Below, piece after piece: positions 1,373-35,991 of a stretch of DNA of 38,868 nt. The DNA is from Minisyncoccia bacterium. GTDB lineage: Bacteria > Patescibacteriota > Minisyncoccia > UBA6257 > GWB1-50-10. Location: the NCBI GenBank assembly GCA_049997835.1, contig JBEKSI010000002.1:1-38868 (forward strand), in the 5' to 3' direction. The position numbers and the translations under genes are program-made. Under the pieces are notes generated by a model. The model was given only the letters and a program-made list of their open reading frames with translations. It searched no databases and had not been told where the DNA came from. Position 1 is the stretch's first letter. Each line of letters begins with the position of its first letter.

Positions 1373-1691
1373 AAAAATAAACGAGGCGGAGGTTATTTTA
1401 GGCGTGTGTATGGCTTTTTTGGTCTATATCTTATGTTTTATTTTTGATCTTTTTGCCATTGGAGTAGTCGTTTCTCCGGTCATCCAGAGTTTTTTCACCT
1501 TCGGGATGTGGTTTTTCTTCAAAAATCACGGGGATCCGGATGCAAATAAACTCAATGGCAATATCGCCCAGTATTTCGGCAATTTAATACCCTTCATCCC
1601 CGCAATAGTCCTTTCTTTCGCTATTAAGGTTTTTATCCATAATCACCAGCAACTCGGGGGTATGGCGGCAGGCATAGCGCAAAAGTTATAA
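1356..1691 (+). CDS. Small polytopic membrane protein (about 3 hydrophobic helices), unknown family
   Basis: 111-aa ORF overlapping the ATPase stop by 17 nt. Hydrophobic segments 'VILGVCMAFLVYILCFIFDLFAIGVVV', 'FFTFGMWFFF' and 'LIPFIPAIVLSFAIKVF'. Its position resembles VirB3/TrbD-type small partners, but I see no recognisable motif. Confidence 0.5.
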   Translation: MNSEYKKINEAEVILGVCMAFLVYILCFIFDLFAIGVVVSPVIQSFFTFGMWFFFKNHGDPDANKLNGNIAQYFGNLIPFIPAIVLSFAIKVFIHNHQQLGGMAAGIAQKL

Positions 1692-1700
1692 TTCATACAA

Positions 1701-2381
1701 ATGAGATCCCAAACCCAAAAAATCTTTTTAACCGCAGGTTTATTTTTCGCGGCTACTTTCTCAGTGATGGGCCAAACGCAAAATACCCAGGTGATAATCA
1801 CTTGGCGCGCGAACAGTTACTTCCCGGCCGATTACGCCGGCAAGGCCTCTGCCGCGCCCGGGGCAGCGCTCACAGCCTCAGCTGAACTGATTTCGGCCGG
1901 CAAATTACAGGATATCGTGAACGCCAACATAAACTGGTCTTTGAATGGAAATTTGATAGATGGCGGCACCGGATTAAAAACGGTTTCTTTCACTGCCGCC
2001 GCCCAAAACCAGGGTTATGAGATCTTAAATGTATCCATAAACACCTCAAAAGGCGTTCTGGAGAATTCAACAAGGATTCCAGTCAGCAAGCCCGAGGTCG
2101 TTTTAAGTTTTCCTTACCCCCAAAAATCTGCGAAGGCCGGCGGCCAGATCACCGTCTCAGCCATTCCTTTCTTTTTCAACGTTCTTTCGTTCGACGATCT
2201 GAAATTTGACTGGCGGATAAATAACGAAAAGGTCACGGTGGATGGGAATAAAATCACCGCGAACATAGGCACACCACAGTCGGATTTTCAGAACTCAGTT
2301 CAGATCCTCGCAACTGTCCAGAACTCCAAAAACCTTCTTGAGTTCGCAAGAGGGACGCTTATCTTGCCTATAACTCAATGA
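1701..2381 (+). CDS. Secreted protein of unknown function (N-terminal signal peptide)
   Basis: 226 aa. Signal-like N-terminus 'KIFLTAGLFFAATFSVMGQ'. Beta-rich composition. Its TGA stop overlaps the next ATG (ATGA). Confidence 0.55.
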   Translation: MRSQTQKIFLTAGLFFAATFSVMGQTQNTQVIITWRANSYFPADYAGKASAAPGAALTASAELISAGKLQDIVNANINWSLNGNLIDGGTGLKTVSFTAAAQNQGYEILNVSINTSKGVLENSTRIPVSKPEVVLSFPYPQKSAKAGGQITVSAIPFFFNVLSFDDLKFDWRINNEKVTVDGNKITANIGTPQSDFQNSVQILATVQNSKNLLEFARGTLILPITQ

Positions 2382-3601
2382 GGAGAATTTTTTCATTAAA
2401 ATATCTTCTTATTTTTATGATCTTCTTGGGATTGGTTGTTTTCTTTTCGGGGGGCCGACCCGTCTCTGCCGAAGATATTGTAAACGTGGACTTTCCGTGT
2501 CCTTCCGGAAACTGCCAGCAACCAACGGATATTCCTTCTTATTTGAACACCGTATATAAATTCGCCGTGGGCATTTCCGGCCTTCTCGCGCTGGGGATGA
2601 TAGTTGCGGGTGGGGTTTATTACACCGTTTCGGCGGGGAACAGCGGGCGGCAGGGCGAGGCAAAAAGCATGATAACTTCGGCCATCTGGGGCTTGGTTCT
2701 TCTTTTTGCGTCTTACTTGATACTCAACACCGTGAATCCGCAGATAACCAAACTGGGGTTAGACCTAAGTGGCGCTACGCCAATCTCCTCAACATCAGCA
2801 ACTAGCTCTGTAATTAATTCTACTATTTGTCCGGATTTCTCCACGATGCCAACCTTCCCGAATAATTATCAAAAACTCACAACGCCGGATTCCAATTGCG
2901 GTTATAGAAAAATAGTAACACCCTCCCAACTTTCCGTCGGAACGCCAAGCCAATATTATGAGGAAACGGTTACAATCCCACCCAACTCAACAATTTGGCA
3001 ATACCCTTATTTCATAGAATCCGACGGGTCCTCAACTGCAAAATGCTTGATCTTTGCCTACAAAGAATCTGATTCAAGCTCAACTACTTTTATAACGCTT
3101 AGAGATTCCATCAGTAAGTGTACCATGCAAACACAATCAATCGGCGCTAGCGCAAATCCAACTTTGGCTCCAACTTGCAATCCCAGCGACCCGCTCCCCG
3201 CAAACACTCTTACCAATGAGGATGCTGTCCAGAATCTGAATGGCTTTGGCATAAGCGTTACCTCATCCGGTAACTGTAGTGACCGATGCTCCTCAAATTG
3301 TACCAGTCTCTGGGGGATACCGACTAGAGTTATAAATACTCATCTAAAATACATATCTGATCATTGTGGGAGTAATTGCACTGTCATCGTTACTGGCGGC
3401 ACGGAGGTCGGGCACCAAAGCCATGGGCCAGGTAAACCTGTCGTGGACCTATTCTTTAATCCGGCTCTTGCTGAATATTTGAAAAATTCATATAAATCAA
3501 ATATTGACGCTCTTTGCACCACCCCCCAAGACCAACAATATCGGATTAATTGTAATTACGATGAAACAGTGAGACATCTTCATGTCCAATTCGGATTATA
3601 A
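2378..3601 (+). CDS. T4SS pilin-like (TrbC/VirB2-like) N-terminal module fused to a Cys-rich C-terminal domain with a Zn-peptidase (LAS/M15-like) motif pair
   Basis: Signal/TM, then two hydrophobic helices separated by a short polar loop: 'FAVGISGLLALGMIVAGGVYYTVSAGNSGRQGEAKSMITSAIWGLVLLFASYLILNTVNP'. This is the layout of CPR 'T4SS pilin' family proteins. The C-terminal ~280 aa contain about 16 Cys. 'VTGGTEVGHQSHGPGKPVVDL' gives H-x7-D and the terminal 'RHLHVQF' gives H-x-H. Confidence 0.6.
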   Translation: MRRIFSLKYLLIFMIFLGLVVFFSGGRPVSAEDIVNVDFPCPSGNCQQPTDIPSYLNTVYKFAVGISGLLALGMIVAGGVYYTVSAGNSGRQGEAKSMITSAIWGLVLLFASYLILNTVNPQITKLGLDLSGATPISSTSATSSVINSTICPDFSTMPTFPNNYQKLTTPDSNCGYRKIVTPSQLSVGTPSQYYEETVTIPPNSTIWQYPYFIESDGSSTAKCLIFAYKESDSSSTTFITLRDSISKCTMQTQSIGASANPTLAPTCNPSDPLPANTLTNEDAVQNLNGFGISVTSSGNCSDRCSSNCTSLWGIPTRVINTHLKYISDHCGSNCTVIVTGGTEVGHQSHGPGKPVVDLFFNPALAEYLKNSYKSNIDALCTTPQDQQYRINCNYDETVRHLHVQFGL

Positions 3602-3604
3602 ACC

Positions 3605-4759
3605 ATGAAACCGATCATAAAAATAAGTTTAATCACTCTGATAATAATCGTCATCGGGTTGATTATTTATTTCGTTTGGTCGGCTCTCGCGCCGGCGCCG
3701 GAAAACCCGGCTCCGGGTAGTGCGGGGAATCTTCCTACCGCCTCGAGCACAAGTAGTTCCACAAGCGAGCAAAACCAGACCAGCCAGCCGGAGCAGCAAA
3801 ACGGGAGTGCCGTTCCGACCTTGGAAAAAATTTCCGAAAATCCCGTCTTTGATTTTTGGGTAGACTCGCAAACCCAAGAAGTTTATTATCTGGATCCCGA
3901 CGGCCGGATTTTCTCCGCTAAAAAGGGGCAGGACATTCAGATCACCCAGCAAAAACTGAACGCCCCGAATTTCATAAAAGTTTCACCAAATGGCCAGCGC
4001 GTGCTTATGGCCTTCGGCGCCCCCCGCTCGCCCCAGTGGGGCATATTTGACGTTATTGACGGCGCCTGGCGCCCGCTGCCGGGAGACATACAAAACGCCG
4101 CCTGGGGGACGGATAGCGGTAATCTTATCGCTTTCGTGAAGAACGGCGGCAGCATAAATCTGTCAAATATCAATATCTCTCAAAACCAACCGAGTTATAA
4201 GATTATCGCGAAGGATATGCGTTTTGAAGACGTAAAAATGGACTTTATCCCTCCTGATAACATGATTATCCAGGAAAATCCTTCGGGGGATTACGCGGGG
4301 CGGGCCTGGAATCTGAATTTGAAAAATCTTTCAATTTATCAGCTTTTCTCCCCACAAGGCGGGCTCACCATGAAACTTTCTACGGATAAGAACATCTTGT
4401 TTGTTTTTTCGGCGGACGGCGGCTTCAGAATTTTAAACTCCGCCAATCTGAATTTGACCACGCCTCTGCCTTTTTCCACCCTGCCATCTAAATGTTCTCC
4501 CGACTCATTTCTTATTTATTGTTTTATGCCGACAGACGACGGGTTTAAAAATTCCGTGCTGCCGGACGATTACATTAAACAGGGAATATACACTTCCGAT
4601 ATCCTATATAGGATAAACCCGGGGACAGACGAGGTTCTTTTAATCCCCCTGCCGAAAAACGCCGGGACTATTGACGCCCAAAATCCCGTCGCTTCAAACG
4701 GCGCGCTCTATTTCATAAACAGGTACGATAAATCTCTCTACTCGCTTAGCTTGGAATGA
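3605..4759 (+). CDS. N-terminally anchored extracytoplasmic protein with TolB/PD40-like beta-propeller repeats
   Basis: TM 'ISLITLIIIVIGLIIYFVWSAL', then an S/T/Q-rich linker. Repeat-like strings 'DPDGRIFSA', 'VSPNGQRVLMAF' and 'DSGNLIAFVKNG' resemble PD40 blades. Confidence 0.5.
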   Translation: MKPIIKISLITLIIIVIGLIIYFVWSALAPAPENPAPGSAGNLPTASSTSSSTSEQNQTSQPEQQNGSAVPTLEKISENPVFDFWVDSQTQEVYYLDPDGRIFSAKKGQDIQITQQKLNAPNFIKVSPNGQRVLMAFGAPRSPQWGIFDVIDGAWRPLPGDIQNAAWGTDSGNLIAFVKNGGSINLSNINISQNQPSYKIIAKDMRFEDVKMDFIPPDNMIIQENPSGDYAGRAWNLNLKNLSIYQLFSPQGGLTMKLSTDKNILFVFSADGGFRILNSANLNLTTPLPFSTLPSKCSPDSFLIYCFMPTDDGFKNSVLPDDYIKQGIYTSDILYRINPGTDEVLLIPLPKNAGTIDAQNPVASNGALYFINRYDKSLYSLSLE

Positions 4760-5309: not shown

Positions 5310-5999
5310 TTAATTCACTGACTCGGTTGCTTCCGGTATGTTTATTTTTTTGTTTATAAAAAACTGCTGAATGATGGAAAAGAGATTGGAAACCGTCCAA
5401 TAGAGACCGATTGCCGACGGAAGATTGAAAAGTACGATAAGCGTGATAAGCGGCCCGATATACATCATCATTTTTTGGTTCGCGGCCATCGAATCCCGGG
5501 GCCCGTTATTAAGCTTCGGGGCGAGCGTCATTTTGGTCTGAAAATATTGGAGAAGCGCCGCGGCTATCGTCAACGTCAAACTCTTTTCATTTAATTGTAT
5601 CAACCCAAAAAAGCTTAGGGTTGGGAAAACCGCTACGGTGATTTCTTTGGAAAAAATTCTGAAAAGGGCGAAGAATATCGGGAGTTGAACCAGTAAAAAC
5701 AAAATACTGGAGAATGGATTAATGCGATGCTCTTTATAAAGCGCCATTAATTCTCTGGCCTGTTTTTCTTTGTCGTCTTTATGATCTAGTTGAATCTTCT
5801 TTATGTGCGGTTGAATTTTCTGGATTATTGTCTGGTCTTTGGCTCCTTTATAGAATACCGGGAGTAAGATAAGCCGGATTAAAACCGTCAGTATGACGAT
5901 GGATAAACCCAGATCATGGAAAGAGAGGTTTTGATAATAAATGAATTTTAAAACCTCGAAAATCGGATTATATATGTAAGAATCAAAAAGTGCTCCCAT
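5310..5999 (-). CDS. yidC: Membrane protein insertase YidC (short, monoderm type)
   Basis: 'GLSIVILTVLIRLILLPV' and 'MALYKEHRINPFSS' are typical YidC/Oxa1 core motifs. Synteny rpmH-rnpA-yidC-jag. Confidence 0.9.
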   Translation of the reverse strand: MGALFDSYIYNPIFEVLKFIYYQNLSFHDLGLSIVILTVLIRLILLPVFYKGAKDQTIIQKIQPHIKKIQLDHKDDKEKQARELMALYKEHRINPFSSILFLLVQLPIFFALFRIFSKEITVAVFPTLSFFGLIQLNEKSLTLTIAAALLQYFQTKMTLAPKLNNGPRDSMAANQKMMMYIGPLITLIVLFNLPSAIGLYWTVSNLFSIIQQFFINKKINIPEATESVN

Positions 6000-6310
6000 T
6001 ATTTTAAGGAAACTGATTTTTTAAGTATTTCTTCCTTTATTTCATCAAATGTTTTTCGCGAAACTGGCGGTTTTACTATAACCAGAAACTCTGTCTTTTT
6101 TTCTTCCGAGATTTTCCTGAGAACGGCGCGCACCCTTCTTTTAAGAAGGTTACGCTCTGTGGCTCTTTTTAGCGAGTTTTTCCCGATTGAAACCAAAACG
6201 GAACTTTTGCCGCGTTCCAAGGGCCTGGTTTTTATTATAAAACTCACTAAATTAGACCGAGAGTTTCTTTCTGCCCTTTTGGCGGCGGCGACGCAAAGCG
6301 CTCCGGCCAC
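5999..6310 (-). CDS. rnpA: RNase P protein component
   Basis: '[18 protein letters not shown]' RnpA motif and synteny. The first ~21 codons of the track ORF overlap rpmH. An in-frame GTG at 6247, 5 nt after the rpmH stop, is a more plausible start. Confidence 0.8.
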
Positions 6311-6392
6311 CCGGCGATCGGCTGCGTTTTAAGAAACCGTGAGTCCTGCTGCGTTTTCTTTTCTTCGGCTGATAGGTTCTTTTCGTACTCAT
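6252..6392 (-). CDS. rpmH: 50S ribosomal protein L34
   Basis: '[23 protein letters not shown]' is the L34 signature. The true ATG is at 6392, and the track ORF start at 6479 is an upstream extension. Confidence 0.95.
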
Positions 6393-6398
6393 AAGAAA

Positions 6399-6428
6399 AT
6401 TATAGTGCGGGAGGGGAAAAACCGTCAA
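6399..6428 (-). promoter_or_regulatory. Sigma70-like promoter of rpmH, placed for a leaderless transcript
   Basis: Minus strand reads TTGACG-18 nt-TATAAT-tttctt-ATG. Only 6 nt separate the -10 from the start codon. Confidence 0.45.
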
Positions 6429-6542
6429 CAGGTAATACACAACTAATCCACTTTCCCGTCTTTGTAGCGATATTGGCATTTTTTTAAAATGTCCCTATTA
6501 TTAAGCGGGGATAAGATAATCGCGCCGCAGATAAATAAAAAA

Positions 6543-7907
6543 ATGGATACTAATCAACTTTGGCAGGCAGTACTCGGGGATGTTGAACTCCAAATTTCCC
6601 GTCCAAATTTTTTAACGTGGCTCAAGAACAGCCAATTATTGGATAAGAACGAAAAAGAAGGTTTGGTTTTGGTCGGCTTGCCGAACAACTTCGCCAAAGA
6701 GTGGGTGAAGAGTCGCTATCATAAAATTATTTTAAGCTCTTTAAGGAACTTGGACGGCTCAATTAAAAACATTGATTACACCGTTTCAAACCAAAACTCC
6801 GTTATTGCTCCCCTTAAAAAACATAAAACCGTTCAGGAAATAAAATTGCAATCTTCCCTCATAGAACTCCGGATAGATCCTAAAACAAATCTGAATCCGA
6901 AATATCTTTTCAATTCTTTTATTGTCGGCTCATCCAACGAACTTGCTTACGCCGCCGCCCAAGCGGTTGTAAAAGACGTCGGGAATAAATACAATCCGTT
7001 TTTTGTCTATGGCGGCGTTGGTCTGGGGAAAACCCACCTTATCCAGGCATTGGGGAACGAGATAACGAATGTTTATAAAAACTCCGTGAATGTTCTTTAT
7101 GTTTCCTCGGAAAAATTCATTAATGACGTGGTCTGGGCCGTGAGAAATAAAAGAATGGAGGATGTGAAAAAAAAATACAGAGATATCGATGTTTTGATAG
7201 TGGACGATATCCAATTCATCGGCGGTAAACCGACCACCGAACAAGAATTCTTCTACACGTTCAATACTCTTTATGAAAACAACAAACAGGTCATAATTTC
7301 ATCCGATCGGCCGCCTTCCGCCATACCTACTCTTGAAGAAAGGTTACGTTCTAGATTTGAGGGGGGAATGATAGTGGATATTTCTTACCCTGATTATGAG
7401 ATGCGCCTGGCGATACTTAAGATGAAGGCTCAAAAAAGCGGGGTTTTTGTGGAGGAATCGATCTTGGAACAAATCGCCGCCCAGGTACAAAAAAACATCC
7501 GGGAGTTGGAGGGGGTATTGAATAAGGTTGTTTTTTACGAACAGTACAAGAATGAGAAAATCACCAATAAAAAACTTGAGGAGATAATCAACGAAGCGGT
7601 TCGGGTGCTCCCGAGAAATATCACCGCGAATGATATTGTGAGAGTGGTGGCTGATTTTTTTGAAGTGCCGGCGCAAGACATCACCAACCGGGGAAGAAAA
7701 CAGGGTGTGGTGGAACCCCGACAGATCGTTATGTATTTAATGCGGGATGTTTTGAAGCTTTCCTATCCTCATATCGGGGAAAAAGTCGGTAAAAGGGATC
7801 ACACCACCGCAATCCACGCCTGCGAGAAGATAAAAAAAGAGATTAATCAAAACCCGGGGTTGAATCAGAAAATAATATTAATAAAAGAGAAATTGTATAG
7901 GGTGTAG
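6543..7907 (+). CDS. dnaA: Chromosomal replication initiator DnaA
   Basis: 'MDTNQLWQAVL' N-terminus, Walker A 'GGVGLGKTHL', Walker B 'LIVDDIQF', and the C-terminal DNA-binding signature 'KRDHTTAIHA'. The track start at 6489 is probably an extension. Confidence 0.95.
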   Translation: MDTNQLWQAVLGDVELQISRPNFLTWLKNSQLLDKNEKEGLVLVGLPNNFAKEWVKSRYHKIILSSLRNLDGSIKNIDYTVSNQNSVIAPLKKHKTVQEIKLQSSLIELRIDPKTNLNPKYLFNSFIVGSSNELAYAAAQAVVKDVGNKYNPFFVYGGVGLGKTHLIQALGNEITNVYKNSVNVLYVSSEKFINDVVWAVRNKRMEDVKKKYRDIDVLIVDDIQFIGGKPTTEQEFFYTFNTLYENNKQVIISSDRPPSAIPTLEERLRSRFEGGMIVDISYPDYEMRLAILKMKAQKSGVFVEESILEQIAAQVQKNIRELEGVLNKVVFYEQYKNEKITNKKLEEIINEAVRVLPRNITANDIVRVVADFFEVPAQDITNRGRKQGVVEPRQIVMYLMRDVLKLSYPHIGEKVGKRDHTTAIHACEKIKKEINQNPGLNQKIILIKEKLYRV

Positions 7908-8094
7908 AATACTTGTGGATATTATGTTGATTTTTTGGATGAATTTTTGGGATATTTTTTAAAACTCATAATTTAGCCGGTAAAAGATTTAAATTATCAA
8001 CAACTCTTCCCACCCCACAAAACATAAAATACCTTTTAATTAAAACAAAAAACGTGATTTAATAGACTTATACACACCTCCTACCACTACTACT
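7908..8094. other. Candidate oriC: AT-rich dnaA-dnaN spacer with DnaA-box-like 9-mers
   Basis: TGTGGATAT at 7914-7922 (reverse complement ATATCCACA, 8/9 to TTATCCACA). TTATACACA at 8068-8076 (8/9). Weaker TTTGGATGA and TTGGGATAT copies lie in the tandem 'ttttTGGATGAattttTGGGATAtttttt'. Confidence 0.45.
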
Positions 8095-9201
8095 ATGAAA
8101 CTAATAATACTAAGAACTAACTTAATAGATGGGTTGAACTCCATGGAATGCGCGATTAGTGAGAGTTTGAATCTACCCATCTTAAAAAATATTCTAATTA
8201 AAACTAATGGGGATGGTATTGTTTTTACCTCTACCAACCTTGAATTGGCGGTAGAATGCGTTATTTCCGGCAAGGTTATAGAAAAGGGTGAAATAACAAT
8301 CCCATTTTCCATATTTAATTCCATAATTAAAAACCTTAATTCTGAAAGGATTAGTTTAGAGGAAAAAAACAAAAAAGTGGTAATAAGCACGGATAATTAT
8401 GAGGCGGTTATTCAAGGACAGGATTCGAAAGAATTCCCAATAATTCCCCCCATCGCGAATAAAAACAAAAAACTCAAAATAAACACCAATGATTTTAAAG
8501 AAGCCCTGGGAAGCGTGATAATCGCCGCCCAATATTCCGACATTAGGCCCGAGATAAGTGGAGTTTTTTTAAATCACCTAGATAACACTTTTACTCTCGT
8601 CGCGACGGACAGCTTCCGTTTATCCGAAAGAAAAATAGACGCTAAACTTATTCAAACCGACTTAGATGATTTTTCCGCGATAATACCCCTCAAAACCGCT
8701 TCGGAATTAATGAGGTTTTTCGGTAAAGACGAGGTTTTAGAGATTTCCATTGACCCAAATCAAATCTTATTCAACACTAAAAACAAAAAAATAATTTCCC
8801 GGCTTATAGACGGAAACTTCCCAGATTATAAAGCAGTGGTGCCAAAACAAACAAAGAACGAAGCGGTGGTTGATAAGAACGAATTGATTAACGCCCTGAA
8901 ATTAGCCAGCGCTTTTGTTGGTCGGACGAACGATATAACTCTCAAGATTGGGGATGGGAAAAAAACCATGGAAGTTTATTCCGTAGACAGTTCTTTAGGG
9001 GAGAATTGTTATAAAATACCCATTAAATTGAAGGGTGAAAAATTCTCTCTGGTTTTTAATTGGAAATATTTATTAGACGGCCTGAAGATTTACAAGGGTC
9101 AGGAGGTAATCTTGGGAGTTAATTCGCCGGACCGGCCGGTAGTGATAAAAACACTAACCGAACCACTGTTGGTCTACGTTGCGATGCCCATCAAGAGTTA
9201 G
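8095..9201 (+). CDS. dnaN: DNA polymerase III beta sliding clamp
   Basis: 368 aa immediately after dnaA. 'LVATDSFRLSERK' and 'LIDGNFPDYKAVVP' are typical clamp motifs. Confidence 0.9.
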   Translation: MKLIILRTNLIDGLNSMECAISESLNLPILKNILIKTNGDGIVFTSTNLELAVECVISGKVIEKGEITIPFSIFNSIIKNLNSERISLEEKNKKVVISTDNYEAVIQGQDSKEFPIIPPIANKNKKLKINTNDFKEALGSVIIAAQYSDIRPEISGVFLNHLDNTFTLVATDSFRLSERKIDAKLIQTDLDDFSAIIPLKTASELMRFFGKDEVLEISIDPNQILFNTKNKKIISRLIDGNFPDYKAVVPKQTKNEAVVDKNELINALKLASAFVGRTNDITLKIGDGKKTMEVYSVDSSLGENCYKIPIKLKGEKFSLVFNWKYLLDGLKIYKGQEVILGVNSPDRPVVIKTLTEPLLVYVAMPIKS

Positions 9202-29031: not shown

Positions 29032-29036
29032 GTTTG

Positions 29037-29108
29037 TGCCCTCGAGAAGAATCGAACTTCTATCTTCTCCTTCGGAGGGAGATGTCCTATCCATTGAACT
29101 ACGAGGGC
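29037..29108 (-). tRNA. tRNA-Arg (anticodon CCG)
   Basis: Hand-folded cloverleaf from the reverse complement: GCCCTCG TA GTTC AATGGATA GGAC A TCTCC CT-CCG-AA GGAGA AGAT AGAAG TTCGATT CTTCT CGAGGGC A. Acceptor stem 7 bp. T-loop TTCGATT. No encoded CCA. Confidence 0.85.
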
Positions 29109-29178
29109 GTCGTAGAATTAATACCAGCTTTTACTGAGAGAGGCAAGAAGCGTATCAAGAAAAAGAAGTAAAATTTCT

Positions 29179-29583
29179 CTAGCTCCTAAAATCAACCTGG
29201 AATCGATACATACCCATCCCGCATGTCCCCAGAAGAGTGCTAAGTTGCGGAGTGCCGATATCAATGTCGGTATTCCCGGACGAGGGAAGAACTTTCGATA
29301 TGTTCAGACTCGGGATGCGAATGGATGACGAACAATCGAATGTTCCGTTTGTACGGAATCGCAATACGGTGGGAACTCCCGCCTTGGCGATGCTCTCTCC
29401 CGGCCGGTAGCCGCCCTTGGCAGCTATTTCTATGATCTGTTTTCCGTCGGCAATACTCACGTTATCGACGGGGGCGCTTACGCCGCTTTGCGGACTCGGA
29501 TTCCTGCCTTGCGTAAACAGAACAGCTCCACCGACAATGACGGCGGAAATAAGTATTGATATGGGTAAAATTTTGGAACTCAT
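29179..29583 (-). CDS. Membrane-anchored cupredoxin-like domain protein
   Basis: N-terminal TM, then a ~100-aa beta domain ending 'LLGTCGMGMYRFQVDF' (Cys/Met-rich metal-site-like string). Last gene of the cop operon. Confidence 0.55.
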   Translation of the reverse strand: MSSKILPISILISAVIVGGAVLFTQGRNPSPQSGVSAPVDNVSIADGKQIIEIAAKGGYRPGESIAKAGVPTVLRFRTNGTFDCSSSIRIPSLNISKVLPSSGNTDIDIGTPQLSTLLGTCGMGMYRFQVDFRS

Positions 29584-29595
29584 AAGCGTATTGTA

Positions 29596-30630
29596 CTAGA
29601 AGTTGAAGACCGGCGGTATGGCCCCTATAACGACCAAACTGTTTATTAGATTGAAGAGCGCGAACATGATTACGATGAGCCCCGCGGTTTTAAAGAAGAT
29701 GCCGGCCTTTGAACTGTTCTTAATACTGAACGAGCTGAAACTTATGAGCGCGAGAACAGGCAGAGTTCCCAAGGCAAATGCGAGCATAGTGAACCCTCCC
29801 GTGAAAAAACTTCCCGTAGAAAGCGTGTAGATTTGCATTGATTGCGTAAAGCCGCACGGCAGGAAGAAGGTTGCCACGCCGACGAAGAGCGGCGTAAGCG
29901 TGTGGTTGAATTTTGATATGCCTAAGGCGTGTTTGGAAAGAAACTTCGGCATCGCCGGCTGGAGTTTCTTTGTCCAATGAAAAACATCCAAAAGATTGAT
30001 GCCTAAAATGAGCATAACAATGCCGATAGCGAGGCCTAAAATGAATGTCATCGTGGTGTTCAAGGCGAAAGCGGAACCGATTGCCCCGATAACCCCGCCT
30101 AAAATAAAGAACGAAGTTATGCGTCCCCCGTGAAACAAAAGCTGCGGCCTTACTTTATCTCCCTCTCTTGCGAATGTGGCCGACATAGAGAGAAGTAAGC
30201 CGCCCACGACTGCCATGCAGGTTGAAAGTGATGCGACGATGCCGACAAGAAACGCGGTCCCGTACGAGACCGAACCGGCATTTATAAGATTCACGAGCCC
30301 TAATTTTTGCAGGGTGAAAAATAATACGGCAAACGCGAGGGCGGTGGGAACGGCAATTTTAAATTCCGACCAGTTCGCCGTCGTTATTCTCTTTTCAACA
30401 GAAAGGTTGTAGCCGTGTTTTAAAAGTACCCCTGAGAGCTCCTCGGCAAGCGCTTCCGGGAGTTTATCTCCGAAATCTCCCGTTATCTCAACCGAATGAT
30501 GCTTTAAACTTGATTTTACTTTTGTGACGAAAGGGATGTCCTGAAGCTCGCTTTCCGTCATGAGCTCGCAGGCCTTGCAATGCATCCCGTTTACGTGAAA
30601 TATGAAGGTTTTTTGCGTTTGGGGTTCCAT
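29596..30630 (-). CDS. HMA (heavy-metal-associated) domain fused to a TauE/SafE- or DsbD_2-like polytopic membrane domain
   Basis: 'FIFHVNGMHCKACE' HMA CxxC motif, then about 6-8 TM helices. The ATG at 30630 lies 4 nt after the copA stop, and the track start at 30711 overlaps copA. Confidence 0.65.
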   Translation of the reverse strand: MEPQTQKTFIFHVNGMHCKACELMTESELQDIPFVTKVKSSLKHHSVEITGDFGDKLPEALAEELSGVLLKHGYNLSVEKRITTANWSEFKIAVPTALAFAVLFFTLQKLGLVNLINAGSVSYGTAFLVGIVASLSTCMAVVGGLLLSMSATFAREGDKVRPQLLFHGGRITSFFILGGVIGAIGSAFALNTTMTFILGLAIGIVMLILGINLLDVFHWTKKLQPAMPKFLSKHALGISKFNHTLTPLFVGVATFFLPCGFTQSMQIYTLSTGSFFTGGFTMLAFALGTLPVLALISFSSFSIKNSSKAGIFFKTAGLIVIMFALFNLINSLVVIGAIPPVFNF

Positions 30631-30634
30631 ATGA

Positions 30635-32938
30635 TTATAGTTTTTTGGTTTTAAGGCGAAGCGAGTTGCCGACAACCGACACGCTTGAAAAGGCCATCGC
30701 GAGGCCCGCAAAAATGGGATTCAGCAACCAGCCAAAGATCGGATAAAATAGTCCTCCGGCAAGCGGGATGCCCACGATGTTGTAGATGAATGCCCAGAAA
30801 AGATTTTGCTTGATGCCGCGCATTGTTATTTTTGAAAGTTTGATGGCTTTGACGAGCTTAGAAATATCTCCGTGGAGAAGCGTGATGCCAGCGCTTTCTA
30901 TCGCCACGTCGGTTCCCGTCGCCATCGCGATGCCGATGTCGGCCTGGGCGAGAGCGGGAGCATCGTTCACTCCGTCGCCAGCCATGGCAACGATCTTGCC
31001 TTGCGACTGAAGTTCTTTGATTTTATTTAATTTATCTTCCGGCATTGCTTCCGCCACCACCTCGTCAATGCCAACTTGCTCTGCAATGTACCGCGCCGTA
31101 TTTTTATCGTCGCCCGTAAGCATCACAATTTTTATTCCCAGTTTATGAAGATTTTTTACCGCTTCTATCGCTTCCGGCTTTATGGCGTCGGCCACCATCG
31201 CGACACCCAACACCTTTTCTTTGGTCGCGAGAATAACCGGGGTCTTGCCCTCCAGGGTTTCTTTTTCAAGCGCGCGGGTATCGAACGATAAATTGAGCTC
31301 TCGGATGAGTTTCATGTTGCCGGCGTGGTATTCCGTATTTTCTATCGTTCCTTTGAGTCCTTGGCCTTTTATGGCGTTGAAGCTGCTTACAGAAAGAAGC
31401 GAAATATTTTTTTCGTTTGCATATGAAACTATCGCGTGGGCGATCGGGTGCTCCGATTTTTTCTCAAGCGATGCCAGCAACGAAACAAGTTCGTTGTCGC
31501 TCTTTTTGGAAAAATTCTGAATGGATACCAATTCGGGTTTTCCTTTGGTGATCGTGCCGGTCTTGTCCACCACAATAACGTTTACTTTATGGAGTTTTTC
31601 CAATGTCCCCGCGTCTTTAATAAGGATGCCTTCCTTTGCGCCCTTGCCGACTCCGACGATGATGGCCGTGGGAGTTGCGAGCCCCAGGGCGCACGGGCAG
31701 GCGATTACGAGAATGCCGACGAAAGATACCAGGCCGTACGAAAACGCCTGGGAGAAGCCAAGGTACCCCGTTCCGATGGCGAGCCACAGACCAAGCGCAA
31801 TGAATGAAAGCGCCAGAACAACGGGAACAAAAACGCCCGAAATCTTGTCCGCCAACGCCTGAATGGGCGCCCGGCTTCCCTGCGCTTCCTCCACCATTTT
31901 GATAATGCCCGCGAGAAGCGTCTCTGAGCCGACCTTCGTCGCTTTGAAAGTAAACGAGCCGGTTGTGTTGATGGTCCCGGCAACCACCGTATCCCCAATA
32001 TTCTTTTCTACGGGAATGGGTTCGCCGGAAACCATGGCTTCGTCTACGTACGACGAGCCCTCGGTGAGCACGCCATCAACGGGAATTTTGCCTGCGGGTT
32101 TTACAATGATTAAATCTCCGTGAACCACCTGACCAACGGGTATTTCCGTTTCTTTTCCGCCGCGAAGAACCAGGGCGGTTTTCGCCTGAAGATTAAGGAG
32201 TTTCTCTATGGCATCGCCGGTTTTTATTTTTGAACGCGCTTCAAGATATTTGCCGAGAGTGATAAAAGCGATGACGATGATAGTAACGTCAAAGTAGGTT
32301 TGTTCTACATTAACGAACGGCCTTAAAGTTTCCGCAAAGGCGGTAACTACAAAGCTATAGAGATACGCGGCGGATGTGCCGATACCGATGAGCGTGTCCA
32401 TATTGGCTTTGCCGTAGCGCAGGAAACGATAAAAGCCGAGCAGGTAGGGTTTGCCTACCACAAAAAGGGTGTAGGTGGCCATTAATGGCAAGAGATAGCG
32501 GAAGAAATTGCTCCAAACGTAGGGGATGGCGGGAACCGCGCCCAATTGCGCCGAAATATCCCAGCCAATCACAAAGATACTGATCAGCGTAAGCGGAATG
32601 ACAGACATTATTTTTTTCTTCATGTCAGCAAGCTCCGCGAGCTTCTCCTGTTTGGATTGATTGAGTCCGAGGTGCGCGGCGTGCTCGCTGGGGGACATGT
32701 TCATTTCTTCCGCGCTGAGTGAGGTAGGGATAATAAGCGAGTAGCCCAAGGGTTCTATTTTTTTGGAAAGATGATGCGGACTCGTTTTAGCTTCGTCAAA
32801 AGTAATTTTTGCGGCTTCGGTTCCGTAGTTTGTTTCCACAGATTGAACACCCTCTGTTTTCTTGAGGGTCTTTTCAATGATGCCGGCGCACGAAGCGCAG
32901 TGCATCCCCCTTATTTTATAGGTTTCCGTCCGGTTCAT
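30635..32938 (-). CDS. copA: Copper-translocating P1B-type ATPase
   Basis: HMA 'GMHCASCA', TM6 'ACPCALGLATP', phosphorylation site 'DKTGTIT', 'MLTGD', 'GDGVNDAPAL'. Confidence 0.95.
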   Translation of the reverse strand: MNRTETYKIRGMHCASCAGIIEKTLKKTEGVQSVETNYGTEAAKITFDEAKTSPHHLSKKIEPLGYSLIIPTSLSAEEMNMSPSEHAAHLGLNQSKQEKLAELADMKKKIMSVIPLTLISIFVIGWDISAQLGAVPAIPYVWSNFFRYLLPLMATYTLFVVGKPYLLGFYRFLRYGKANMDTLIGIGTSAAYLYSFVVTAFAETLRPFVNVEQTYFDVTIIVIAFITLGKYLEARSKIKTGDAIEKLLNLQAKTALVLRGGKETEIPVGQVVHGDLIIVKPAGKIPVDGVLTEGSSYVDEAMVSGEPIPVEKNIGDTVVAGTINTTGSFTFKATKVGSETLLAGIIKMVEEAQGSRAPIQALADKISGVFVPVVLALSFIALGLWLAIGTGYLGFSQAFSYGLVSFVGILVIACPCALGLATPTAIIVGVGKGAKEGILIKDAGTLEKLHKVNVIVVDKTGTITKGKPELVSIQNFSKKSDNELVSLLASLEKKSEHPIAHAIVSYANEKNISLLSVSSFNAIKGQGLKGTIENTEYHAGNMKLIRELNLSFDTRALEKETLEGKTPVILATKEKVLGVAMVADAIKPEAIEAVKNLHKLGIKIVMLTGDDKNTARYIAEQVGIDEVVAEAMPEDKLNKIKELQSQGKIVAMAGDGVNDAPALAQADIGIAMATGTDVAIESAGITLLHGDISKLVKAIKLSKITMRGIKQNLFWAFIYNIVGIPLAGGLFYPIFGWLLNPIFAGLAMAFSSVSVVGNSLRLKTKKL

Positions 32939-32942
32939 GATT

Positions 32943-33203
32943 CTATTTGCGCTTGAGTCGATATACTTTGAGTATTTCTTCTCTCGCTTTAGCTCCCTTA
33001 CCTTTTTTTATTTGGTCAATAGCGCAGGTGCTCAAATGATTTTCCATTACCATATCCTCAATACCCGAAAGAGCCTGCTTTACGGCGGATGTTTGCGTGA
33101 TGACGTCAATGCAGTAAATATTCTTTTCAACCATTTCCCGCAATCCCCGGACCTGCCCCTCGATTATCTTGAGCCGGCGAATGACTTTCTGTTTGTGGTT
33201 CAT
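32943..33203 (-). CDS. csoR: CsoR-family copper-sensing transcriptional repressor
   Basis: 'RLKIIEGQVRGLREMV' plus the Cys...His-x3-Cys ligand pattern ('IYCIDV', 'HLSTC') of Cu(I)-type CsoR. Confidence 0.85.
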   Translation of the reverse strand: MNHKQKVIRRLKIIEGQVRGLREMVEKNIYCIDVITQTSAVKQALSGIEDMVMENHLSTCAIDQIKKGKGAKAREEILKVYRLKRK

Positions 33204-33218
33204 GTTTATAACGGTTTC

Positions 33219-33246
33219 AGTATATACCCCCTGGGGGTATTGTCAA
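33219..33246 (-). promoter_or_regulatory. cop operon promoter with the CsoR-type operator in the spacer
   Basis: Minus strand reads TTGACA-16 nt-TATACT. The spacer is the palindrome ATACCCCC-T-GGGGGTAT (33224-33240). It overlaps a second palindrome, GTATTG-T-CAATAC (33236-33248). Confidence 0.6.
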
Positions 33247-33298
33247 TACTGACCATGGGGATAAGAACAAATATGGAAGATGTATAATATAAAGAGAC

Positions 33299-33550
33299 AT
33301 GAACAAAAAACTTCTTATAGCGCTCGTGGTCGCGGTGGTTCTTCTCGCGGCGGGGTACTGGTATTGGGGAAATACCCGGGTAGCTCCCACTCCTGAGCAG
33401 GCAAATCTCAATCAGGTTGGGGACAGCGTGGAGGCGATCAACCAGAGCGTAACGCAGGGCGTTATGCCCTCGCTTGCCGTTCCGGACACGAACCCCGTCA
33501 CCAAAACCAATCCCTTCTCCGAGTTGAAAACCAATCCATTCGGCCAATGA
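33299..33550 (+). CDS. Small N-terminally anchored protein with C-terminal TNP(V/F) repeats
   Basis: TM 'LLIALVVAVVLLAAGYWYW'. C-terminus 'DTNPVTKTNPFSELKTNPFGQ'. ATGA overlap with the next gene. Confidence 0.5.
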   Translation: MNKKLLIALVVAVVLLAAGYWYWGNTRVAPTPEQANLNQVGDSVEAINQSVTQGVMPSLAVPDTNPVTKTNPFSELKTNPFGQ

Positions 33551-35367
33551 AAACAAAACATCTTTTAAGTGTTCTTATCCTCGGCGTCGGCATCGTTTCT
33601 TCGTTCCTGATAATGAGCAACGCGGCCCTGGCTCAAACGACGGCCGCGCCGGCGGTTAATCCAATAGCGAACATTCAATACCCCGTTTCTGAACTTGGCA
33701 ATTGCGGGAGCGAAACGGAGTGTAAAACGTACTGCGACAATTCCGCGCACTTGGATGCCTGTCTTTCGTTCGCCGAATCGCACAACCTGATGTCGGCCGG
33801 CGAGATCCAAGCGGCCAAAAAATTCGTGGCGGTGGGCAAGGGTCCTGGCGGATGCGCCACGAAGGAAAGTTGCAACCAGTATTGCGACGATGCGTCGCAT
33901 ATCGATGAATGCGTCGCTTTCGCGGAGAAAAATAATCTAATGTCCCAGAGCCAGCTCACGGAAGCCAAACAAGTGCAGGCGGCCATCAAAAAAGGCGCAA
34001 AGCTTCCGGCCTGCAACGGCAAGGATGCTTGCGACAAGTATTGTAATGATGTGGCACACGTCGAAGAATGTATGGCGTTTGCGAAAGCCGCCGGTTTCAT
34101 GACTCCCGAGGAGATACAAAATTCGGATAAGGTACTTGCGGCCGTAAAGAAAGGAGTAAAACCTCCGGCCTGCAAGGGCAGTGAATGCGACAAGTATTGC
34201 AGCGATCCGGCGCACGCGGAAGAATGCATTGCGTTTTCCGAAGCCGCCGGTTTTATGACTCCGCAGGAAGCCACCATGGCGCGGAAAACGGGTGGCAAGG
34301 GTCCTGGCGGATGCGTGGGTAAAGAACAGTGCGATGCGTTTTGCAATAACCCGGATAATCAGGAAACCTGTTTCAATTTCGGGCGAGATAACGGGATGAT
34401 CCCTCCGGAGCAGCTTCAAAAAATAGATGAAGGGAAAAAGCAATTCACCGATTCATTAAAACAAGCTCCAGTTAAAGTAATAGATTGCATATCAGGCGTG
34501 GTGGGAGCGGATCGTTTGGAAAAATTCAAGAGCGGCACCTTAGTGCCTCCGAAGGATATTGGAAATAAGGTTGGCGAATGTTTTCGTCAGGGAATGCCTC
34601 CCGGTGGTCCCGGAGAAGGCGGTAATATTCCGCCGGCGGGTCAAGGTTCCGGCGATGCGAAGCCATCATTCCAACCCGGGCCGGGAACCACGAACCCCGG
34701 CGGGCAGATGATGCCGCAGCAGGCGGGCCCCGGCGGATGCAAAACACCGGAGGAGTGCCAATCGTTCTGTGCGTCCAATCCCGATGTTTGTAAAAATTTC
34801 AGACCGAGCGGGGAACCCGGAAACCAACCGAGCGTAAAAATAGAAAGAGCGCCCGGCCAATCCGGAGGCAATCCGCCAACTGGCGGGATGATGCCGTCCC
34901 AACCGTGTGAAGGCGATAATTGCAAACAGCTTGCCCCAGGAGGGCAGCCTGGGCAGATTCAGGGAGGAACGCAGGGAGAACTTCAAAATTTCGTTGAAGG
35001 AGAAGCAAGAAAGATGATGCAAAGAATCCAGCCCGGGACACAGATACAACAGAAGCAAGGCCCCTCAACGAACTCGGGGCAAGCTCCTTCAATGGGATTA
35101 GGAGGACAAGGCCAGGCGTGCGCGCCGGGTACACAGTGCGGCCCGGGGTTCAATAATACGCCCGGACAAGCGCCCGCCGCCACTCAGCCGGGGACGTTTA
35201 TCCAAACCCAGCCCGGGAATATGATTCCGCAGGGAAATATAATACCGCAGGGAAATATGATGCCGCCATCCGGAGGCGCTCCGCCGCCGGCAAATGGTTC
35301 CGCGCCGCCGCCACCGCCAGCCGGAGGCTCGCTTCTTGAAGCCGTACAATCATTTTTTGGTTTGTAA
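33547..35367 (+). CDS. Secreted repeat protein: six Cys4 modules followed by a P/G/Q-rich low-complexity tail
   Basis: Signal peptide 'LLSVLILGVGIVSSFLIMSNAALA'. Modules follow C-x(4,5)-C-x3-C-x(6,8)-C. I recognise no known family. Confidence 0.75.
   Translation: MKTKHLLSVLILGVGIVSSFLIMSNAALAQTTAAPAVNPIANIQYPVSELGNCGSETECKTYCDNSAHLDACLSFAESHNLMSAGEIQAAKKFVAVGKGPGGCATKESCNQYCDDASHIDECVAFAEKNNLMSQSQLTEAKQVQAAIKKGAKLPACNGKDACDKYCNDVAHVEECMAFAKAAGFMTPEEIQNSDKVLAAVKKGVKPPACKGSECDKYCSDPAHAEECIAFSEAAGFMTPQEATMARKTGGKGPGGCVGKEQCDAFCNNPDNQETCFNFGRDNGMIPPEQLQKIDEGKKQFTDSLKQAPVKVIDCISGVVGADRLEKFKSGTLVPPKDIGNKVGECFRQGMPPGGPGEGGNIPPAGQGSGDAKPSFQPGPGTTNPGGQMMPQQAGPGGCKTPEECQSFCASNPDVCKNFRPSGEPGNQPSVKIERAPGQSGGNPPTGGMMPSQPCEGDNCKQLAPGGQPGQIQGGTQGELQNFVEGEARKMMQRIQPGTQIQQKQGPSTNSGQAPSMGLGGQGQACAPGTQCGPGFNNTPGQAPAATQPGTFIQTQPGNMIPQGNIIPQGNMMPPSGGAPPPANGSAPPPPPAGGSLLEAVQSFFGL
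33703..34440 (+). repeat. Five tandem ~50-aa Cys4 modules (a sixth, degenerate one lies at about 34726-34800)
   Basis: CGSETECKTYCDNSAHLDAC, CATKESCNQYCDDASHIDEC, CNGKDACDKYCNDVAHVEEC, CKGSECDKYCSDPAHAEEC and CVGKEQCDAFCNNPDNQETC. The first four are each followed by a [LVMI][SA]F[AS][EK]x[HNA][NG][LF]M[ST]-type string ('LSFAESHNLMS', 'VAFAEKNNLMS', 'MAFAKAAGFMT', 'IAFSEAAGFMT'); the fifth is degenerate ('FNFGRDNGMI'). The 22-nt string GGCAAGGGTCCTGGCGGATGCG occurs twice (about 33835 and 34295). Confidence 0.85.
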
Positions 35368-35390: not shown

Positions 35391-35417
35391 CACTCAATAT
35401 TCATTGGGTGTTTTTTT
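35391..35417 (+). terminator. Rho-independent terminator after the repeat-protein gene
   Basis: CACTCAAT-ATTC-ATTGGGTG (8 bp, one G-U) followed by TTTTTTT. Confidence 0.6.
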
Positions 35418-35493: not shown

Positions 35494-35991
35494 ATGGAAA
35501 AAGAAGAGCAAGTAAAAGAAGTTTCCACGGAGGAGAAGTTGATTCAAGAAGCGATTTTTGAGGTATTGGAGAACGAAAATCGCGCCCACACCAGTTGCAT
35601 AAATCCCAACAAGGAAGGCGTATTTACGCCGCTCTTAGCGGTTGATGATCATCTTTTTAACGTTACTATCCGCCAGAATAGCAAAACTATTTCAATAGAG
35701 ATGATTGATAACGAATTACTGGTTGGCGGTTTGATAAATAGAATTAAGAAAGCAAACGGCAACCCGGGCACGAAAGAAAAGGGTAAAAAGAGATGGATGT
35801 CTTTCCGGATAGACAAAAAGACCCGCTACCTCACAATCCTTGCGGAAGTATCCGTAAATCCCAAAGAAGGGAAGGGAAAGGTAGTAGAATCAATTCGGAC
35901 TAAATTCTCATTTTTTATCGTTTTGGTATCAATGTTCTACTCCGGAGTGTTTGACATGCCGGAAGACGCCGGAAAGCCCGTGAAGTTCTAA
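35494..35991 (+). CDS. Hypothetical protein (165 aa), no recognisable family
   Basis: Strong AGGAGG SD 6 nt before the ATG. Candidate promoter TTGACA-18 nt-TATGTT upstream. Terminator-like hairpin plus T-tract downstream. Confidence 0.55.
   Translation: MEKEEQVKEVSTEEKLIQEAIFEVLENENRAHTSCINPNKEGVFTPLLAVDDHLFNVTIRQNSKTISIEMIDNELLVGGLINRIKKANGNPGTKEKGKKRWMSFRIDKKTRYLTILAEVSVNPKEGKGKVVESIRTKFSFFIVLVSMFYSGVFDMPEDAGKPVKF

Follow-up and report, generated by a model that had tools for sequence, protein, structure and literature searches.

Among the described secreted proteins made of tandem alpha-helical repeats are the Helicobacter cysteine-rich proteins (Hcp) and the Sel1-like repeat proteins of bacteria, in which units of about 36 amino acids (aa), each with two helices and one disulfide, stack into a solenoid. 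The present analysis concerns a pair of overlapping genes, coding for an 83-aa protein and a 606-aa cysteine-rich repeat protein, in a 38,868-nucleotide stretch of DNA from a Minisyncoccia bacterium (Patescibacteriota; assembly GCA_049997835.1, contig JBEKSI010000002.1, positions 1 to 38,868 of the forward strand; hereafter the window). The 606-aa protein is like the Hcp/Sel1 proteins in being a secreted bacterial array of tandem alpha-helical repeats; each Hcp repeat is stapled by a disulfide, and disulfides are likewise predicted here. It is unlike them in that its units are about 53 aa long, with three helices and four cysteines apiece. The Sel1 model did not match the 606-aa protein in Pfam at E<=1, nor was there a Foldseek match in the PDB at E<0.5. 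To our knowledge, a dedicated membrane-anchored partner with asparagine-proline (NP) repeats, such as the 83-aa protein, is not a feature of Hcp proteins.

Short helices fastened by two or three disulfides, with a CX3C pair on one helix, are also found in the Euplotes raikovi pheromones (PF06360), the plant alpha-hairpinins and the defensin-like peptides (PF25052). These peptides are single free domains, whereas here arrays of 5–13 modules are part of envelope proteins of 500–1,500 aa; among Pfam families, only such disulfide-rich peptides were matched repeatedly by single modules, always below threshold. The copper storage proteins Csp1 and Csp3, which would suit the idea of a metal buffer, are single Cys-lined four-helix bundles with more than 10 core cysteines, and exported members use the twin-arginine (Tat) route. 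The modules are similarly helical, with cysteines on helices at i/i+4 spacing, but they are three-helix units with four cysteines each behind a Sec signal, and their linkage to copper genes is rare. The order of signal peptide, N-terminal repeats, proline-rich spacer and hydrophobic C-terminus, often with K or R behind it, recalls the wall-spanning, proline-rich LPXTG proteins that sortase anchors in Gram-positive bacteria. Neither LPXTG nor another sorting motif is present at the C-terminus of the window protein (...PPPPAGGSLLEAVQSFFGL) or in its homologs; unlike in the LPXTG proteins, the C-terminal hydrophobic stretch is short (~12–20 aa) and a separate membrane protein is encoded alongside in most loci. 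Cohesin–dockerin scaffolds provide a functional analogy, in that a repeat array is encoded together with a partner bearing short motifs in several copies, and this suggests, by analogy, that array and partner may dock in modular fashion at the cell surface; the two systems are unrelated in sequence and fold, and the numbers of motifs and modules are uncorrelated in the present family. Extracellular Cys-cross-linked repeat proteins are a familiar general kind, and what is new here is the module, its predicted fold and the NP-repeat partner. Literature searches, including one for candidate phyla radiation (CPR) bacteria and disulfide formation, returned no description of this protein family.

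The interpretation that we prefer, and hold tentatively, is that the 606-aa protein is exported by Sec and forms, at the cell surface, a helical stalk or scaffold which is stapled by disulfides and works with its co-translated NP-repeat membrane partner. The pair would form a self-contained operon found across Parcubacteria-type Patescibacteria. Both products would be exported via Sec, the 83-aa protein remaining membrane-bound by its N-terminal helix and exposing outside the cell a tail that contains three to five NP[FLY] motifs. The large protein would lose its signal peptide, and each ~53-aa module would fold as a three-helix unit with its four cysteines in two disulfides. Five to seven modules would then stack into a rigid helical rod, followed by a proline-rich flexible spacer and a short C-terminal hydrophobic helix. 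Its own tail, the NP-repeat partner docked on the modules, or the two together would keep the rod at the membrane. Such a rod may act as a stalk or scaffold for envelope organisation or attachment, and in some relatives the same stalk would carry lectin or Kazal-like domains. The analysis itself shows the family, its conserved partner, the export signals, the predicted helical fold of the module, the absence of a conserved copper setting and the fusions in variants; the disulfides, the stalk role and the docking of the NP motifs are what we infer. A further proposal is that the four-Cys, three-helix modules are a new class of extracellular peptide-recognition repeats binding the NP[FLY] motifs of the partner. 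The whole would form a Patescibacteria-specific tether for a rigid, disulfide-stapled stalk, bearing lectin or Kazal-like domains at its tip in some lineages, and would be a core structure of the envelope that cultivated bacteria lack; in our judgement this is somewhat unlikely.

The repeat region was used to collect 654 homologs, of which the best 120 have E < 1e-121 and identities of 36–65%. Their taxon labels, where given, are Patescibacteria (Jorgensen-, Nealson-, Azam-, Nomura-, Magasanikbacteria and others) or merely "bacterium", and their database names are "hypothetical" or "proline-rich domain-containing". At least 270 stretches were found to encode a relative in a scan of one genome per species, and the profile of a single module matches about 1,885 clusters at 50% identity, the labelled ones being mostly from Patescibacteria. 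Three homolog contigs (L046, L069 and L077) are labelled Gammaproteobacteria, Spirochaetia and Methylomirabilis; their gene content is Patescibacteria-like and they are probably mis-binned. The usual architecture consists of a signal peptide, an N-terminal cap (IQYPVxELGNC), the modules, a helical domain with a Cys pair, a tail with a degenerate mini-module, and a C-terminal helix. Six modules occur in 102 of the 120 homologs, and among the best 150 profile matches the number ranges from 6 to 13. The module region is 40–65% identical across candidate phyla while the tail is variable, and the family therefore appears to behave as a housekeeping family, not a fast-evolving one.

All of the sequence features listed in a preliminary description of this DNA, which had been made from the letters and open reading frames (ORFs) of the window, were found in place (Table 1). 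The Sec-type signal peptide of the large protein, read by eye, has a K-rich, positively charged n-region (MKTKH), a hydrophobic core of 18–19 residues (LLSVLILGVGIVSSFLIMS; hydropathy 2.41 over 19 residues) and an AxA cleavage site (NAALA, followed by Q); it contains no twin-arginine motif and is conserved in the family alignment. The four-Cys cores of the five modules (aa 53–72, 103–122, 156–175, 209–227 and 256–275) follow the pattern C-x5-C-x3-C-x8-C, except that the first spacing of the fourth is C-x4-C, and the protein contains 30 cysteines in total. The sixth, degenerate unit that had been reported is likewise real and corresponds to the mini-module at aa 398–415. Its family consensus is xGPGGCxxPEECxxxCxxxPxxCxxF, and several copies are present in the variants P0143 and P0218. 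The helical region following the modules is kept with its Cys pair in most homologs.

The low-complexity tail and its 18-nt repeats also hold good, with G, P and Q making up 19%, 15% and 11% of aa 301–606 and three repeat units lying at 35215–35268. In the family as a whole the tails contain 4.75% Met against a background of 1.8%, and are depleted in His (0.4%). The MM dipeptide, in [EG][GQ]MMP[PQ] motifs, is enriched about 25-fold relative to neighbouring genes, whereas the classical MxM and MxxM patterns are enriched two- to three-fold only. Examples of the [EG][GQ]MMP[PQ] motif in the window tail are at 34702–34719 and 35215–35268. Most homologs finish with a segment equivalent to the C-terminal helix, the last residue of which is often K or R, and the helix may bind the membrane or a partner.

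The structure of the array was predicted using AlphaFold2. The model of aa 31–350, based on 121 aligned sequences, has a mean predicted local distance difference test score (pLDDT) of 91.2 and a predicted template modelling (TM) score of 0.70, and is all helical with three helices per module; a single module modelled alone has a pLDDT of 84. Within each module of the model, Cys1 belongs to the coil that precedes helix A. This helix, 8 residues long, carries Cys2 and Cys3 at a distance of one turn, Cys4 falls midway along helix B (13 residues), and the third helix runs to the next module. To judge from the register of this hairpin, the pairing would be C2–C4 and C1–C3.

The preliminary description could assign the module to no known domain, and the searches bear this out. 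The whole 606-aa protein has no Pfam or NCBIfam match at E<=1, and neither its sequence nor the module profile gave a PDB match under E = 0.45. Foldseek against the PDB likewise produced no match, the best hit for the array (320 aa) having E = 0.58 with TM <= 0.18, and that for a single module, the search which the description had proposed, E = 4.7. When 88 single modules were compared with Pfam, all matches were below threshold (best E 0.0045), the commonest being AtDEF-like (12), Euplotes pheromone (7) and late nodulin (6); two metallothionein models received one sub-threshold match each. The AtDEF-like cut-off of 25 bits was marginally passed by two whole homologs (28.1 and 27.1 bits).

Several lines of evidence bear on the state of the cysteines. 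The four Cys of the module, reported as invariant in the window, are invariant over 731 family modules. The His residue that had also been called invariant is indeed present in window modules 1–4, with Asn in its place in module 5, but does not hold for the family, in which that position is H in 49% and N in 48% of the 731 modules and the two are exchanged even at orthologous positions. The Cys count is even in 115 of the 120 homologs, which follows in part from the four-Cys module itself, and the cysteines outside the modules occur as close pairs. At the locus of the close homolog P0027, the gene for a DsbA-like membrane-anchored protein (CPYC motif) is situated 3 kb away from the pair, and similar genes lie near three other loci. 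Some large relatives join the array to lectin or Kazal-like domains; both are extracellular types, and the Kazal fold is obligately disulfide-bonded. Because of the Sec signal, the H/N alternation, the even counts, these fusions and the DsbA-like genes, and because the commonest sub-threshold Pfam matches of single modules are to disulfide-rich secreted peptides, the module cysteines most likely form two disulfides per module rather than metal sites. A disulfide-stabilised surface protein had been offered in the preliminary description as the alternative to its main idea, and it is this alternative that fits the evidence best.

The second component of the system is the small protein. The survey covered 80 homologous genome loci and 61 non-redundant metagenome loci (141 in all), taking in 10 kb of surrounding sequence. 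In 73 of the 80 genome loci the gene immediately upstream of the large one encodes a homolog of the partner; of 60 cases measured, 50 have the two genes overlapping or no more than 30 nt apart. In the window the stop and start codons overlap as ATGA, so that the coupling described earlier to an anchored 83-aa protein with an NPF-type tail is borne out, as is the extracytoplasmic location proposed for the large protein. The small protein consists of an N-terminal anchor, a short helix with a GVMPS motif and a C-terminal NP-repeat tail. KK stands before its anchor, which lacks an AxA cleavage motif, and the protein would be retained in the membrane by its N-terminal helix. All partners in the family alignment share a hydrophobic anchor at the N-terminus, a ...GVLPS... 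helix and a tail of the form NPLExKPDxNPxxKxNPFxxIKTNPFE, and proteins of this type also precede the lectin-bearing variant P0218 and the 1,431-aa variant P0132. A relationship of one NP motif per module was considered and rejected, the counts being uncorrelated across 60 pairs. No other conserved neighbour was found among 1,337 clustered neighbour ORFs, the next best being a CCA-adding enzyme in 12 loci, and 146 immediate neighbours were spread over 141 Pfam families, the most frequent of which has five members.

Table 1. Features of the two-gene locus and of the adjoining copper genes (window coordinates).
Feature	Position	Strand	Basis or remark
cop cassette, four genes (neighbouring context)	29179..33203	-	Pfam hits
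Cupredoxin gene	29179-29583	-	Pfam
HMA+DsbD_2 gene	29596-30711	-	Pfam
copA	30635-32938	-	Pfam
csoR	32943-33203	-	Pfam PF02583, E = 8e-24
CsoR-type operator palindrome ATACCCCC-T-GGGGGTAT	33224-33240	.	Context; belongs to divergent csoR promoter
Putative -10 element TGTATAAT of the two-gene operon	33281..33288	+	Read from sequence; AAAGAGA and ATG follow
Small partner gene, 83 aa	33299..33550	+	ORF
Predicted transmembrane anchor LLIALVVAVVLLAAGYWYW of small protein	33311..33367	+	Best 19-residue window, mean Kyte-Doolittle 2.25
NP-repeat tail PDTNPVTKTNPFSELKTNPFGQ of small protein	33482..33547	+	NP at aa 65, 71 and 79
Large four-Cys-module gene, 606 aa	33547..35367	+	ORF
Sec-type signal peptide of large protein, MKTKHLLSVLILGVGIVSSFLIMSNAALA (then Q)	33547..33633	+	Read by eye; n-, h- and c-regions and AxA
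Five tandem ~53-aa modules	33676-33831, 33832-33990, 33991-34149, 34150-34287, 34288-34446	+	Cys spacing
Helical domain 3' of the modules, conserved Cys pair C314/C345	34447..34596	+	Model residues 257-319 helical
P/G/Q/M-rich low-complexity tail, Cys pairs C454/C459 and C525/C531	34597..35322	+	Composition
Mini-module GPGGC-x5-C-x3-C-x6-C-x2-F within the tail	34726..34800	+	Degenerate unit, aa 398-415
Short hydrophobic/amphipathic C-terminal helix GGSLLEAVQSFFGL	35323..35364	+	Hydropathy, sequence
Terminator-like hairpin with a T run behind it, at the end of the two-gene operon	35391..35410	+	Consensus match only

The element TGTATAAT would be the -10 part of the promoter of the two-gene operon. 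The syntenic relative L015 has the same leader, TGTATAAT...AAAGAGA...ATG, before its small gene; there it comes immediately after a tRNA-Arg gene and no CsoR operator is present. On the 3' side of the large gene is an ORF of 165 aa (35494–35991, + strand), with a promoter-like site of its own and no Pfam match. Among all the loci compared it has one homolog, at 3684–4403 of L166 (40% identity), which lies upstream of the small gene; the ORF appears to be a lineage-specific companion.

The history of the modules was deduced from their identities. Window modules are 45–67% identical to the orthologous modules of distant homologs and 16–37% identical to one another, with the exception of modules 3 and 4 (57%). 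The N-terminal half of window module 4 matches ancestral module 4 (61–70%) and its C-terminal half matches ancestral module 5 (64–71%), so that it is a hybrid of the two, and the window protein has therefore lost one module from an old six-module array. The five-module form is common to the window protein and its close homologs P0027 and the L166 protein. At the DNA level, the 22-nt stretch noted previously is indeed common to 33830–33885 and 34289–34344, and an 83-nt repeat of 81% identity joins modules 3 and 4. The recent internal duplication that had been deduced from such stretches is rejected, the modules being closer to their distant orthologs than to each other.

Among the other explanations, the one that survives best is that the protein is a host-attachment adhesin of an episymbiotic cell, the rod and tail of which contact the surface of the host microbe directly instead of organising the cell's own envelope. 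The secreted repeat architecture with its flexible spacer would suit such a function, and variants exist that carry a ConA-like lectin domain, a typical carbohydrate-binding module. The giant relatives P0143, P0218, P0221, P0127, P0132 and P0135 (loci L083 and L084) are 900–1,555 aa long, have 9–13 stretches matching the module profile, and add an N-terminal domain not seen elsewhere in the family, Gly-rich linkers holding several mini-modules, a lectin domain of ConA-like type, a Kazal-like domain, or long Cys-loop Ser/Thr-rich repeats. The lectin domain is joined to the array in P0143, P0218 and P0221 (E about 1e-25) and the Kazal-like domain in P0135 (Pfam, E 4.5e-7); by our own reading P0132 carries a similar Cys motif. 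Host-specific adhesins usually diversify, whereas the module region is well conserved across candidate phyla with six orthologous modules in register; no binding domain can be recognised in the core family, to which the window protein belongs; and neither neighbour clustering nor a Pfam census revealed conserved pilus or secretion genes near the pair. Patescibacteria of this group are reported to be attached to host cells (PMC9600506, PMC9763046). On balance an adhesin of this type is unlikely.

The main idea of the preliminary description was an extracytoplasmic metal-buffering protein, prompted by the copper genes lying divergently beside the pair. In this explanation the module cysteines, with or without the Met-rich tail, would bind Cu(I) or another soft metal and form a copper or metal-thiolate buffer outside the membrane; in a variant of it the protein would be the main Cys-rich client that the reductant exporter HMA-DsbD_2 guards against mis-oxidation by copper. 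The variant draws on general knowledge of copper stress and disulfide isomerisation and is speculative: copper-driven mis-oxidation would be expected to hit a surface protein with 30 cysteines especially hard, and a CcdA-like exporter of reductant is encoded in the cassette. The module protein contains 7.7% Cys and the Met-rich tails possess MMP motifs. The pair adjoins csoR-copA-HMA/DsbD_2-cupredoxin in the window and is 2.1 kb from csoR-copA in L166, and the differing arrangements seen elsewhere (L065, L101, L122 and L042, with cupredoxins in L035, L057, L060 and L071) suggest repeated juxtaposition. Against this, the candidate His ligand alternates with Asn and His is scarce in the tails; the protein contains no CxxC or CxC and has no Pfam match to the metallothionein, Csp or HMA families; and an oxidising compartment for folding is indicated by the Sec signal and by the fusions to Kazal-like and lectin domains.

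The gene neighbourhood also speaks against the copper idea. A csoR or CopA-type gene lies within 10 kb in 5 of the 141 homologous loci, leaving 136 with neither, so that the conservation with csoR/copA which the description had proposed to look for was not found. The csoR gene is found in 2 of the 80 genome loci and 2 of the 61 metagenome loci, and a CopA-type ATPase (CPC and HMA) in L042, L065, L122 and probably L066. As a control, 30 other genes of the window match 0–4 of the 80 loci, and P-type ATPases six. Four of the first 80 loci have cupredoxin genes nearby, adjacent in L035 and L057 and at distances of up to ~2.6 kb in L060 and L071, and none was found in the second, independent set of 61. 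The CsoR-type operator, the only match in the window with 0.05 expected by chance, is situated 59 bp before the ATG of the small gene, in agreement with the ~60 bp reported. It lies between the predicted minus-strand -35 (33246–33241) and -10 (33224–33219) of csoR and ends ~40–42 bp before the predicted TGTATAAT of the pair, with no overlap with the promoter of the latter. Among the homolog loci L001–L084 the operator is absent except in L082, which is the window's own contig.

Comparison with L015 and L085 indicates how the adjacency arose. The former shares with the window RuvA, a Mur ligase, beta-CASP, LDcluster4 and Wzy_C at 68–87% aa identity, together with tRNA-Arg(ccg). Its order is Wzy_C, tRNA-Arg and the pair, the small gene beginning 32 bp past the tRNA, and the cop cassette is absent; in the window a 4.1-kb cassette (cupredoxin, HMA-DsbD_2, copA, csoR) is found between tRNA-Arg and the pair. 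L085 shares LDcluster4, a permease and Wzy_C with the window and has no cop-gene match. The reverse test made use of eight other places with a csoR-led cop cassette, in which CsoR is 76–91% identical to that of the window. CopA is 58–87% identical in seven of these and 44% in L166, and most then carry HMA-DsbD_2 and cupredoxin genes. A TACCCC-N3-GGGGTA operator precedes csoR in five of the eight, and the pair is absent from seven. The exception, L166, is the closest relative of the window (76% for the Cys protein and 84% for the small protein). The adjacency in the window reflects presence or absence of the cassette beside tRNA-Arg in related genomes, most simply by insertion in the window's lineage. 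The cop cassette is not a conserved functional partner of the pair, and metal buffering, either directly or through protection of a client, is distinctly unlikely as the role of the protein.

The cassette itself (29036–33203 in the window; also L165 and L167–L172) is much more conserved between Paceibacteria than are its flanks and occurs in differing contexts; it looks like a mobile copper-resistance cassette. In L165 it adjoins Prim-Pol/AAA_25 and HTH_17 genes, a setting which suggests a mobile element. Transfer RNA genes were considered as a general cause of copper adjacency and rejected, the other copper-adjacent loci having no tRNA beside the cassette; tRNA-adjacent insertion of the cassette is documented only for the window versus L015. 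Transfer RNAs flank the pair in about 25 of the 80 loci (for example L009, L018, L029, L036, L040, L055, L064 and L080). In the tRNA-bracketed loci tRNA-Lys(ctt) is located just upstream of the small gene and tRNA-Arg(tcg) 34–65 nt past the large gene, which may mark a strongly expressed or recombination-prone position. Two points of annotation concern the cassette. The public gene call for the window contig has an 83-aa ORF on the opposite strand (L082, 9490–9741) where csoR lies, and CsoR seems to have been missed. For HMA+DsbD_2 the longest ORF, of 371 aa from a TTG start, shares 77 nt with the end of copA; the protein in the public call is 344 aa, and this later start is probably correct.

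It is highly improbable that the 83-aa ORF is a regulatory leader of the SecM/MifM type, a membrane-targeted nascent chain in which the conserved C-terminal ~35 residues would stall the ribosome and tune downstream translation: its N-terminal membrane segment, ~60-residue linker, proline-containing conserved C-terminus and stop codon overlapping the downstream start are what such a leader would have, but no RAPP, RGPP or RAGP-type motif is present in the partner alignment, the junction mRNA (33470–33600) has no significant fold that could hide the start of the large gene (z = +0.42, with folds as good or better in 131 of 200 shuffles), a ribosome stalled at the ATGA overlap would be expected to cover rather than expose that start, and conservation spans the whole extracytoplasmic part including the GVLPS helix. 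Leaders of this kind are known beyond secretion-machinery genes, including genes that serve metal homeostasis and the making of disulfide bonds (PMC12992588).

A number of observations weigh against the disulfide-stapled stalk or scaffold. The tails of the family are Met-rich, and Met-rich segments bind Cu(I) in some periplasmic copper proteins. Adjacency to csoR or copA has arisen in at least four arrangements (the window with L166; L042; L065 with L101; and L122), with csoR directly downstream in L065 and L101 and one gene further in L122, and a CPC-type copA directly upstream on the same strand in L042. Taken with the cupredoxin genes near 4 of the first 80 loci, this is above the rough chance level of ~1–2% per gene, a figure which ignores phylogeny, and hints at a facultative link of the pair to copper or redox stress. 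Anoxic groundwater is the habitat of many such organisms, and free thiols could persist in it. The C-terminal hydrophobic segment, with ~12 residues and a mean hydropathy of 1.17, has not the length that a transmembrane helix needs. NP motifs and modules do not vary in number together, leaving one-motif-per-module docking unsupported, and the stalk or scaffold role is itself a reading of the architecture.

Elsewhere in the window, at 53–4759 and 5310–9201, are genes that include a TraG-like P-loop ATPase (53–1372) and a type IV secretion pilin-domain protein (2378–3601). They adjoin a replication-origin gene set consisting of a Jag-like R3H protein, YidC, DnaA and DnaN.

Much of bacterial diversity belongs to the Patescibacteria (CPR); roughly half the genes of these bacteria still lack an assigned function, and little is understood of their envelope. 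A widespread gene pair with conserved modules and a predicted fold that has no match in the PDB provides a clonable target for the surface biology of these ultra-small, host-dependent cells. The locus also carries a caution for the reading of genomes, since the position of a Cys/His protein beside a copper operon proved to be mostly an accident of a cassette at a tRNA gene. If the predicted disulfides are formed, these organisms rely on heavily Cys-cross-linked extracellular proteins, which would bear on their redox ecology.

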